The notes under the pieces: model-generated
Database searches by the model: none
Seen by the model: only the letters and a program-made list of their open reading frames with translations
What the model was told of the DNA's origin: nothing
Shown: piece after piece, positions 3,545 to 5,483 of the stretch
How the letters are laid out: each line of letters opens with the position of its first letter
How positions within the stretch are numbered: the first letter of the stretch is position 1
DNA from: a virus
DNA length: 27,742 bases
Strand: one strand, 5' to 3'
UHGV virus genome: UHGV-0038079
Translations under genes and position numbers: made by a program

Positions 3545-4459
3545 TCAGTAGTTATGTACTGAAGGAGGTAATTCTTTATTCTTAAGTCTCATCCATGCGG
3601 AAAGATTCGTTGGTCCGTCTGGCTCATTGATATCAACATCTCGTGTGTGATTGATTAAAACGTCTCTCGCCATTCCGATAACATACGAGAATTCATGACC
3701 GTAGTCGTAGCATCTGCCGGAATAGTTCGATTGAATTTGTTTTAATGCCGGATACAGTTCGCGGAATAATGCCTGTGAGCGGTTGGCATAATCCCATAAC
3801 CATACAAGGCTGTTTGCTTCTTTTGCAGAAAACTCGTTTACTTTCTTCTCTTGTTTGCCAATGAACTCACCTTCAAGTGGAACTCGAGCTGCAAGTGACA
3901 GTGCTTCTGTAAACTGCTCCTCACTGATTTCTTTGTACGAACAGCCAAAATGAGATTTCAGTGACGACCACATGGTGATCATCGCCTTCGCCTGTTTTTC
4001 TTTTGGCAGAGACTGACCGCGACTCATGACGAGTTGTTTAATAGCTTCCTGCTGTTCAGTGGTGATTTTACCAGGCAACGCCTTTTTAGCTTTCGGTGTA
4101 TTTCCGTAAGACCCCGTTTTACGAATGGATGGCAAAACTTCAGCTGTTACCCATTTGCGGAATTTGTGCGGGACTGAACCTTTATTGACGGCATCACGGC
4201 AGCGCAGAACCAATGTATACATACCTGATTCGCTCACAATGCTTAAATTCTGCTCACCACCAAGGGTGTAACTTAAAGTTACTCCCTTCTCATCGTCATC
4301 AAGTGCAGTAAGCGCCTTGCGTGAGTTAGTCAGGGCTAAAGCATCACAAACATCTTTTGCTACAAACCACGGCTCGCCGCACTTGTTGATGACGCGGATT
4401 TCACTGTCGCCGAATTTGAAGATGGTGAAATCGTTTTGTGCCTTTGCTATACTTTTCAT
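3545..4459 (-). CDS. ant: Antirepressor Ant (P22 immI Ant-like), 304 aa
   Basis: Antirepressor-like N-terminal domain ([33 protein letters not shown]); lies directly downstream of an Arc-like gene, as in P22 immI. Confidence 0.75.
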
Positions 4460-4532
4460 GTCAATATTTCCCGATCAGATTTGTTGATGTAGAAGCCTCG
4501 CCAGTTCCCGCTGTCGGGGCTTCGTTATTTTT
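4460..4532 (+). ncRNA. Predicted sar-like antisense RNA covering the ant start region and arc-ant spacer
   Basis: Plus-strand extended -10 TGcTATACT (4445..4453) just inside the ant 5' end; plus-strand hairpin GAAGCC...GGCTTC (4493..4523) followed by GTTATTTTT; same topology as P22 sar. Confidence 0.4.
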
Positions 4533-4692
4533 AGAGAGCATTCCGCATTTTCTCCCGGTACTTCAACCACCAAGCTAATCCTTGAACCAACACTGAGTTT
4601 TCTGACATTCCCTCTTCCTCTGCAATGCGCTTAACTTCTTCCTTAAAGCGGTACGGGTAGCGAAGAGTTGTCTTTACTTCATTCTTTTCCAT
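4531..4692 (-). CDS. arc: Arc-like ribbon-helix-helix repressor, 53 aa (below the ORF-track size cutoff)
   Basis: Hand translation MEKNEVKTTLRYPYRFKEEVKRIAEEEGMSENSVLVQGLAWWLKYREKMRNAL; same length and RHH pattern as P22 Arc (LRWPREV...ENGRSVNSEIYQRV). Confidence 0.7.
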   Translation of the reverse strand: MEKNEVKTTLRYPYRFKEEVKRIAEEEGMSENSVLVQGLAWWLKYREKMRNAL

Positions 4693-4799
4693 GCTGTCTC
4701 CTTATTTCACAATGAAGGCAAATTGCCTTTAGAGTCAATTTACCATGATTGCACATGAAGTCAAGTTGCCTCTACAATGATTTTTATTTGAGGTGAGTT
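4693..4799. promoter_or_regulatory. Divergent promoter/operator region (Pant-like leftward, Pmnt-like rightward)
   Basis: Plus-strand -35 TTGCAC (4749..4754), 18-bp spacer, -10 TACAAT (4773..4778), SD GAGGTGAG before mnt ATG 4800; minus-strand -35 TTGACT; perfect 15-bp palindrome AAGGCAAATTGCCTT at 4715..4729. Confidence 0.5.
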
Positions 4800-5123
4800 A
4801 TGTCAGAAAAATTTCCCAGCCAAATGCAAGACAAGTTCACCGTGAGGTTTCCTGACGGATTGCGCGATGCTATAGCTGAACGAGCTAAACGTAATGGCAG
4901 ATCAATGAACTCAGAGATTGTGCAGATACTGGAAGATGCCTTGAATGCAGAAAATACTCTTGGGGAAATAGCAGATAAAATTAACAGCGTCTCGGTTCCG
5001 CTAAATGTTGATGCGCTAGTTCAACTTCAAGCCCAGGTTATCGCCATGCAAAAAGAAATACAGGAAAAGTTCAGAGAGCAGAACGAAAAGTTGAGAGAAC
5101 TGCTAAACAAAAAACCCACCTGA
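4800..5123 (+). CDS. mnt: Mnt-like ribbon-helix-helix repressor, 107 aa
   Basis: N-terminus FTVRFPDGLRDAIAERAKRNGRSMNSEIVQILEDAL matches the Arc/Mnt fold motif (P22 Mnt ...ANGRSMNSELLQIVQDAL); divergent from arc. Confidence 0.75.
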   Translation: MSEKFPSQMQDKFTVRFPDGLRDAIAERAKRNGRSMNSEIVQILEDALNAENTLGEIADKINSVSVPLNVDALVQLQAQVIAMQKEIQEKFREQNEKLRELLNKKPT

Positions 5124-5132
5124 CGGTGGGTT
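5104..5132 (-). terminator. Intrinsic terminator downstream of the secreted-protein gene (overlaps the mnt stop codon)
   Basis: Minus-strand AACCCACC-GTCA-GGTGGGTT hairpin followed by TTTTTTGTTT. Confidence 0.5.
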
Positions 5133-5147: not shown

Positions 5148-5483
5148 TCATTTAACCTTTCGGCAATCGTACGTCCAAAATTCCCGAGGCTCGTCCATAT
5201 TTTTGCGGATAACTTCAACGTTGAGGATCGCTTTTTTGTTTCGTTTGATGTAGTCCATACCTAACCAACGTCCAGTATTAGGATCAGGTAACATCCATTG
5301 CATCATGACGTTATCGAAATCGTCTTTTTGTTTCAAAAAGGTCATTTTTTGTGTTTCTGGCTTTTGACCATTGATGTGCATGAGGCCATCATTACCAGCA
5401 TCAAAGCGGAATGGTCCGCACTGCGTTGCCGCCGAAACGGTTAACGGCAGGGCCAAGAATAAACAAAAAAATACTTTTTTCAC
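5148..5483 (-). CDS. Small secreted protein of unknown function, 111 aa (GTG start)
   Basis: N-terminal signal peptide MKKVFFCLFLALPLTVSA-ATQ; SD GGAG 9 nt upstream of GTG; start overlaps the stop of the upstream baseplate gene; own terminator. Confidence 0.6.
   Translation of the reverse strand: MKKVFFCLFLALPLTVSAATQCGPFRFDAGNDGLMHINGQKPETQKMTFLKQKDDFDNVMMQWMLPDPNTGRWLGMDYIKRNKKAILNVEVIRKNMDEPREFWTYDCRKVK

Follow-up and report, generated by a model that had tools for sequence, protein, structure and literature searches.

The stretch UHGV-0038079, a viral genome sequence of 27,742 nucleotides (hereafter the window), contains a block of small regulatory genes around an antirepressor gene, and the question raised by this locus is how the block is kept silent and by which protein. 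The answer is sought in the 107-bp gap at positions 4693-4799, the intergenic control region between a leftward arc-like gene and a rightward mnt-like gene. At 4715-4729 the gap holds AAGGCAAATTGCCTT, a perfect palindrome with 7-bp arms (AAGGCAA / TTGCCTT) around a central A:T pair. An earlier note, made from the letters only, had placed this 15-bp palindrome between the arc start and the mnt promoter and proposed it as a candidate operator; the sequence and its place are confirmed. The palindrome is conserved, its flanks are changed symmetrically in one natural variant, degenerate repeats of it lie over the promoter hexamers, and it stands at the position of the Mnt operator in phage P22. It is thus very probably an operator for a ribbon-helix-helix (RHH) repressor of this switch. 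The fuller model, favoured here with some reserve, makes it the main operator of the Mnt-like protein in an immI-type cassette, assisted by two auxiliary sites.

The palindrome is part of a set of three operator-like sites, called O1, O2 and O3. O1 (4713-4731) is a 19-bp site, TGAAGGCAA-A-TTGCCTTTA, that includes the palindrome and the core GGC-AAATT-GCC (4717-4727). O2 (4730-4748) is a degenerate copy, TAGAGTCAA-T-TTACCATGA, with three mismatches to the 19-bp pattern; its left half is a good half-site and its right half coincides with the leftward -10 (TAAATT, minus strand) and the extended TG. O3 (4756-4774), TGAAGTCAA-G-TTGCCTCTA, fits the pattern with no mismatch. Its left half contains the leftward -35 (TTGACT, minus strand), and the whole site lies between the rightward -35 and -10. 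O1 and O3 also form a 30-nt direct repeat with a spacing of 43 bp. Judged by the GGC rule, O1 has two perfect half-sites, O3 has one (GTC..GCC) and O2 has none (GTC..ACC).

This arrangement changes part of the earlier picture, in which a single palindrome was accompanied by an unrelated Arc site. The TAGAG segment (4730-4734) singled out for that role is not a separate kind of site: TAGAG is the outer part of the 9-bp half-site TAGAGTCAA, the same half-site that builds the palindrome (TGAAGGCAA / TAAAGGCAA). The likeness to P22 is real all the same, 7 of the 9 positions agreeing with the Arc half-site TAGAAGCAC. In the control region no second, unrelated symmetric element was found, and the three related sites come from one half-site family. 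The earlier picture also implied a private site for each repressor, a pairing that sequence alone cannot settle.

The statistical weight of the set lies in its clustering. A perfect 7-1-7 palindrome appears in 1.1% of the dinucleotide shuffles of the 107-bp region (P about 0.01), and four such palindromes occur across the window for 1.9 expected, so the palindrome alone is just mildly significant. The 19-bp pattern, on the other hand, matches three times (4713, 4730 and 4756), and three matches were obtained in none of 100 shuffles. The half-site pattern TRRAGKCAA has five exact matches in the whole 27.7 kb, all of them inside 62 bp (4713-4774), against 1.7 expected window-wide; since the pattern was built from the sites themselves this test is partly circular, and the clustering is what counts. 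An unbiased repeat statistic gives the same region four copies of an 11-mer half-site (at most two mismatches), a number reached in 0 of 300 shuffles. GGC-W5-GCC occurs once in the window, as GGCAAATTGCC at 4717-4727, for 0.16 expected. The remaining three 7-1-7 palindromes are located at 664-678, 889-903 and 4268-4282, within TTAATTGCCGCAATTAA, within ATCCTGAATCAGGAT and inside ant, respectively. All three are coding, and such palindromes alone are therefore no evidence of function.

The sites are interlaced with two divergent, overlapping promoters predicted by a consensus scan, which likewise picks out Pant and Pmnt as annotated in P22. The predicted Pant-like promoter (4737-4764, minus strand) consists of a -35 TTGACT (4764-4759), a 16-nt spacer, a TG (4745-4744) and a -10 TAAATT (4742-4737). 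With its transcription inferred to start near 4730, O1 would span about +1 to +18. The predicted Pmnt-like promoter (4749-4778, plus strand) combines a -35 TTGCAC/TGCACA (4749-4755) with a -10 TACAAT (4773-4778) at 17-18 nt, in agreement with the plus-strand elements noticed earlier, and would start near 4785. The two predicted starts are about 55 bp apart, compared with about 37 bp in P22, and each -35 consequently lies inside the spacer of the other promoter. The departures of O2 and O3 from a perfect palindrome can be explained by the promoter hexamers, which need those bases (GGCAA becomes GTCAA, giving TTGAC). A leftward TTGACT close to the palindrome, pointed out in the earlier note, is indeed present at 4738-4733, but the scan supports the distal copy at 4764-4759 as the -35: the proximal one has no acceptable -10 in the scan, and its start would fall inside the arc Shine-Dalgarno sequence. 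An equivalent Pant, TTGCCA-17-CATTAT with TG, is carried by the related ES3-type cassettes. The scan also lists a rightward pair, TTCACA-18-TAGAGT (4706-4735, plus strand), with exactly the palindrome as spacer. The related loci L067 and L068 do not keep the -35 of this pair, which is therefore probably due to chance. Read by eye, the control region has no LexA box (CTGT...ACAG is absent) and no sigma-54 promoter (the GG-to-GC distance is 8, not 12).

The genes on both sides identify the kind of switch. The regulated cargo is ant (3545-4459, minus strand), encoding a 304-aa antirepressor with the Pfam domains Bro-N (5.8e-20) and P22AR_C (3.8e-29). It shares 62% identity over 190 aa with P22 Ant, and the last ~100 aa are nearly identical. 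Directly upstream of ant and co-oriented with it lies the arc-like gene (4531-4692, minus strand), with a Shine-Dalgarno sequence AAGGAG 5 nt 5' of its ATG. Its 53-aa product is assigned to the RHH proteins, as Arc family A, from weak Arc matches and from its position: the Pfam Arc match (19.2 bits, E=1.1e-3) is just under the cut-off of 20.4, the matches to P22 Arc structures are weak, and in ES3-type cassettes the equivalent place is taken by an annotated Arc-family protein with 37% identity over 43 aa (E=1e-10). The mnt-like gene (4800-5123, plus strand) is divergent from the arc-like/ant operon and encodes a 107-aa protein with a clear Pfam Arc match (1.5e-18). This protein comprises an N-terminal arm (residues 1-11), an RHH domain (12-55) with the DNA-reading strand K12/T14/R16, and a C-terminal helical domain. 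Given ant, the small RHH gene upstream of it, the divergent RHH gene and a sar-like RNA between arc and ant, the locus is, by its gene content, a P22 immI-type cassette (mnt-like / Pmnt-Pant / arc-like, sar, ant), of the kind known as an 'ant moron'.

The comparison with P22 immI extends to the control region. Both loci share the gene order and orientation, with mnt divergent from arc-(sar)-ant, and the divergent promoters overlap in P22 as they are predicted to do in the window. Read in the same orientation, P22 presents CAT(arc), the leader ...TCACAATAC, AGGTCCACCGTGGACCT, ATTGAGAATAT, AGTAGAGTGCTTCTATCAT, GTCAAT and, further on, ATG(mnt). The 17-bp palindrome AGGTCCACCGTGGACCT thus follows the arc leader ...TCACAATAC in P22 as AGGCAAATTGCCT follows ...TCACAATGA in the window, and both begin at about +1 of Pant. 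Both are perfect and of odd length, start with AGG, end with CCT, come after a ...TCACAAT arc leader and cover about +1 to +17/18 of Pant. The palindrome, first in this series, is the P22 Mnt operator, and the Arc operator is the second element (Vershon et al. 1987, Raumann et al. 1994).

The likeness to the first element is one of place and not of sequence, since the P22 Mnt operator (AGGTCCAC-C-GTGGACCT) and O1 are unrelated. O2 and O3 of the window cover the Pant -10/-35 and the Pmnt spacer, and it is in this region that P22 has its Arc operator, between the -35 and the -10 of Pant. Here the window half-sites TAGAGTCAA and TAGAGGCAA match the P22 Arc half-site at 7 of 9 positions, and TAGAGTCAATTTACCATG matches P22 TAGAGTGCTTCTATCATG at 13 of 18. 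There are also clear differences. The P22 TAGA boxes are 9-10 bp apart in one 21-bp operator, whereas in the window they are the outer ends of 19-bp sites, with O2 and O3 26 bp apart. The reading strand is K/T/R in the window Arc-like protein and Q/N/R in P22 Arc. P22 has two unlike operators, and the repeat statistic finds no enrichment in its control region, while the window has three sites that share one half-site. Arc represses both overlapping divergent promoters; it binds a symmetric element centred on a base pair, one dimer to each half (PMC2724298).

A second known system offers a parallel to the form of O1. Among proteins of solved structure, the best homologue of the Mnt-like protein is AmrZ (3qoq; 3e-9 over 50 residues), followed by P22 Mnt (1mnt; 2.7e-6) and then by Arc; with P22 Mnt the identity is 51% over 37 aa and is restricted to the RHH domain. 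AmrZ binds amrZ1 (GGC-AAAAC-GCC) as a dimer of dimers, its K18 and R22 reading the two 5'-GGC half-sites; the 5-bp linker between them (AAAAC) is A/T-rich and its minor groove is narrowed (PMC3325190). In the HMMER alignment AmrZ K18/V20/R22 correspond to K12/T14/R16 of the Mnt-like protein, and the two proteins have a similar length (108 and 107 aa) and the same build of N-terminal arm, RHH domain and C-terminal domain. The layout of the operators agrees as well: GGC-AAATT-GCC in O1 of the window and GGC-ATTAT-GCC in O1 of the related F-type cassettes, GGC-N5-GCC being at the same place in all loci of the window's own type (W type) and of the F type. The middle reading residue is Val in AmrZ, Thr in the window protein and Val in the F-type cassette. 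The settings differ, AmrZ being a chromosomal global regulator of Pseudomonas aeruginosa outside any phage antirepressor switch. Its amrZ1 sites are at -93 and -161 of the amrZ promoter, compared with the location of O1 over a predicted transcription start.

About 120 related loci gathered from prophages and viral contigs show which parts of the control region are kept. Across the eight distinct W-type sequences the arc leader varies; O1-O2 and the stretch from O3 to the Pmnt -10 do not, bar one central base of O1. The Pmnt-like -35 changes (TTGCAC, TTGCGC, TTGAAT, TTGAAC) and the -10 does not. In the variant L068 the flanks of O1 are altered symmetrically, AAGGC..GCCTT becoming GAGGC..GCCTC, and the dyad is kept. 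The other cassette types have three sites at equivalent places with type-specific sequences: GGCATTATGCC and two copies of AGCAATATGCC in the F type, GGCCATAATGCC twice and GCAATATGGC in GF-2/L116, GGCCAAGTTAAC and GTCAAGTTGGCC in L074, and ACCAACTTGGT in L013. A clear site at the O2-equivalent place is found in the F-type and GF-2-type loci, as 17-18-bp exact direct repeats. GF-2 and L116 fit GGC..GCC only with a 6-bp linker.

The sites change together with the N-terminus of the Mnt-like protein. Compared with those of the F, ES3 and L013 types, the W-type Mnt-like protein is identical at 88-89 of 90 positions after residue 17 and at 5-7 of 16 before it, and the sites differ. Conversely, L068 combines a W-type N-terminus (17/17) and W-type sites with a different C-terminal domain (38/89 identical), one Mnt-like N-terminus thus occurring on unrelated C-terminal domains. 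The alignments thus show a mosaic joint near residue 17 of the Mnt-like proteins: arm and beta-strand at the N-terminus are swapped as a unit in front of residues 18-107 that are about 98% identical. O2 and O3 are never parted from the Mnt N-terminus among the compared cassettes, and between the W and F types O1 travelled with the mnt side. The Arc-like family A, with its invariant KTTLRYP strand, is paired with several site sets, namely W, F (including the variant L122) and GF-2/L116. When Arc-A cassettes with different site sets were compared for an Arc-specific conserved element, none appeared. The shared elements were O1 GGC..GCC, promoter elements (CCAyNATTG) and the T-run and Shine-Dalgarno sequence before mnt, so no private Arc site emerged. 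In the viral contigs, a scan for the exact 18-nt O1 sequence next to other partner proteins returned W-type cassettes and three chance matches in unrelated contexts only. The assignment of O1 to the Mnt-like protein is based on the P22-like position, the kinship with AmrZ and the co-variation with the N-terminus.

Several observations weigh against this assignment or against the wider model. The predicted DNA-facing strand residues of the Arc-like protein, K7, T9 and R11, are also K/T/R, and this protein may therefore read the same GGC half-sites. The co-variation of sites and Mnt N-terminus is just suggestive because the two are adjacent parts of one contiguous DNA block. ES3 and L116 share the Mnt N-terminus and O2/O3 and differ in the arc family, and there O1 differs and travels with arc. 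Moreover, GGC...GCC is exactly the portion of O1 that is kept among Arc-A cassettes of W type and F type (with L122). O2 as a copy of O1 is not significant alone, 5 mismatches in 15 being expected about 0.2 times within +/-60 bp by calculation. The Mnt-like protein's C-terminal domain showed no similarity in BLASTP to the tetramerisation domain of P22 Mnt, and its AF2 single-sequence model has low overall confidence (pLDDT 61) apart from a helix at 70-103 (about 86); at a pLDDT of 61 the model is no guide to oligomerisation. The promoters and starts are consensus predictions, and the F-type equivalent of Pant scores under the scan threshold.

The main competitor is a reversal of the P22 layout, in which O1 serves chiefly the 53-aa Arc-like protein in negative feedback on arc-ant and the Mnt-like protein, as maintenance repressor, acts at O2/O3 over the Pant -10 and -35. 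This is rather unlikely. The K/T/R residues of the Arc-like protein, at the positions that read GGC in AmrZ, would suit such an arrangement, and so would the invariant strand of the Arc-A cassettes, which in the W and F types (L122 included) goes with an O1 that keeps exactly GGC-N5-GCC while the linker and O2/O3 vary. The ES3/L116 pair points the same way, as does the resemblance between the O1 of ES3 and that of L074, both with Arc family B. Yet the recombination junction between W and F cassettes falls exactly on the arc start codon, and there O1 stayed with the mnt side, its linker changing alongside O2/O3. Within ES3, O1 and O2 still agree at 11 of 14 positions. In P22 the Mnt operator is the perfect palindrome at this position, and the AmrZ similarity belongs to the Mnt-like protein (3e-9), the Arc-like protein having no AmrZ match. 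An arrangement without private operators, in which the Arc-like and Mnt-like proteins compete for or share three sites of the GGC-N5-GCC type, is also considered improbable. If it were true, transient feedback by Arc-like dimers and maintenance by Mnt-like oligomers would be told apart by occupancy and cooperativity and not by sequence specificity.

Explanations that dispense with a bound protein are far less credible. With a start near 4730 the palindrome would lie at the extreme 5' end of the arc-ant mRNA, where a hairpin with a 5-bp stem and a 3-nt loop is possible and could act on stability or translation. But the leader folds with -6.7 kcal/mol only (z=-0.49), equalled by 58 of 200 shuffles, and such a hairpin would leave unexplained both the degenerate copies over the -10 and -35, untranscribed because they lie upstream of the start, and the match to the GGC-N5-GCC protein-binding layout; this role is very improbable. 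Hardly any weight is given either to chance, or to a palindrome that is a mere spacer of the TTCACA-18-TAGAGT promoter listed by the scan and has no operator function. Perfect 7-1-7 palindromes are not rare in the window, three of the four being inside genes, and the 18-nt stretch that spans the palindrome (GAAGGCAAATTGCCTTTA) has exact chance copies in three unrelated viral contigs. Against this, the half-sites cluster, the site is conserved while the adjoining leader varies (TTCACA is part of it and is lost in L067/L068), the flank change in L068 is symmetric and other cassette types carry parallel site triplets.

With the Mnt-like protein as the main ligand of O1, the switch may operate as follows. 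The 107-aa RHH repressor would bind O1 as a dimer of dimers, its two-stranded beta-sheets (K12/T14/R16) entering the major groove, one per GGC half-site, and the A/T-rich 5-bp linker would be read by shape as in the AmrZ-amrZ1 complex. Occupancy of O1, over about +1 to +18 of Pant, would stop arc-ant transcription and the antirepressor would be silent in the lysogen. O2 and O3, each with one good half-site and with the Pant -10 or -35 as the other half, would be filled at higher repressor concentration or cooperatively. With both of them filled, Pant would be fully occluded. As O3 stands in the spacer of Pmnt, its filling would also limit mnt transcription, a form of autoregulation. Expressed from Pant along with Ant, the Arc-like protein would feed back negatively on the same region, and the sar-like RNA would add antisense control of ant translation.

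Both the architecture and the recognition mode of this switch are already known. The P22 immI and AmrZ paradigms are extended to new sequences and nothing is overturned. A literature search found no paper describing the operators of these E. coli cassette types, and related cassettes have been annotated only by analogy with P22 (PMC6372524). What is gained is a testable map (three sites, two promoters and an antisense RNA) of an antirepressor switch that is widespread in prophages of E. coli, Citrobacter and Edwardsiella yet unstudied. Since antirepressors decide prophage induction, the repressor-operator pair would control prophage stability and the cross-talk of co-resident prophages. The most useful by-product of the analysis is a set of natural swaps: in proteins that are otherwise 98% identical, the 17 N-terminal residues of the Mnt-like protein are exchanged along with all three sites, which could serve as a ready series for working out the RHH recognition code.

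The antisense element lies between the arc-like gene and ant. The putative sar-like RNA (4461-4527, plus strand; start predicted at about 4460) has two stem-loops, the second being a terminator (4503-4521, then a T run), and was delineated by Rfam, folding and a terminator scan. It matches Rfam RF00262 (sar) over the full length at a sub-threshold score (28.5 bits, E=0.0023; gathering score 43), and its two-hairpin fold has -24.9 kcal/mol (z=-4.3). The predicted Psar-like promoter (4425-4453, plus strand), GTGAAA-17-TATACT with TG, is antisense to the ant start, and its sequence TTGCTATACTTTTCATG is nearly identical to P22 TTGCTATACTATTCATG. Promoter and sar-like element are also present in F-type and ES3-type loci.

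The 53-aa protein of Arc family A is named 'hypothetical protein' in RefSeq, has no NCBIfam match and looks like an unrecognised Arc subfamily. A scan of the genome collection with this protein gave one extra locus only, a W-type one in Citrobacter. At 4672-4682, within the coding sequence of arc, there is a half-site-like copy, CTTTACTTCAT, 91% complementary to O3 ATGAAGTCAAG, with a short inverted repeat, GAAGAGTTGTCTT, nearby. Across cassette types the two are kept along with the N-terminus of Arc-A, which could point to a site or merely to coding conservation. A distant cassette in L082/L083 (about 1280-1460) has an apparently frameshifted arc remnant and, upstream of its Mnt-like gene (MSDKPVSAQDKFMLRLP), the sites ATGTCAT-T-ATGACAT (a perfect 7-1-7) and TGTCAATATGACA. 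It was considered as a case of mnt without arc and set aside as uninformative, since its arc appears degraded and its sites belong to a further type.

With respect to its wider setting, E. coli LWY24 is 99.7% identical to the window over this region, and there the block adjoins intS amid tail-fibre and baseplate genes. The window is a prophage of E. coli. The 'ant moron' has been described as an independently expressed mnt/arc/sar/ant block inside a late (virion) operon, which varies strongly from one P22-like phage to another and is mosaic (Villafane et al. 2008, PMC2629481). The known cases have a P22-like podovirus backbone, and the window has a myovirus-like prophage next to intS. The cassette (3545-5132) belongs to a tail/baseplate operon and is surrounded by baseplate genes in the window; in relatives (L001, L003-L009) it is found beside a transglycosylase, between tail protein L and a C40 peptidase, or beside a P63C-domain gene. 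With insertion points that vary from one phage backbone to another, it thus has the behaviour of a mobile moron. A 111-aa open reading frame separates the cassette from the next gene of the baseplate region. This is a frame (5148-5483, minus strand) with a signal-peptide-like N-terminus, MKKVFFCLFLALPLTVSA, and no match in Pfam or NCBIfam. Just beyond the stop codon of the mnt-like gene the terminator scan found a minus-strand hairpin (5113-5132) with an 8-bp stem, five GC pairs and a T run, which marks where the cassette ends on the right. This terminator comes after the 111-aa frame, and late transcription reaching the downstream baseplate genes would need to read through it.

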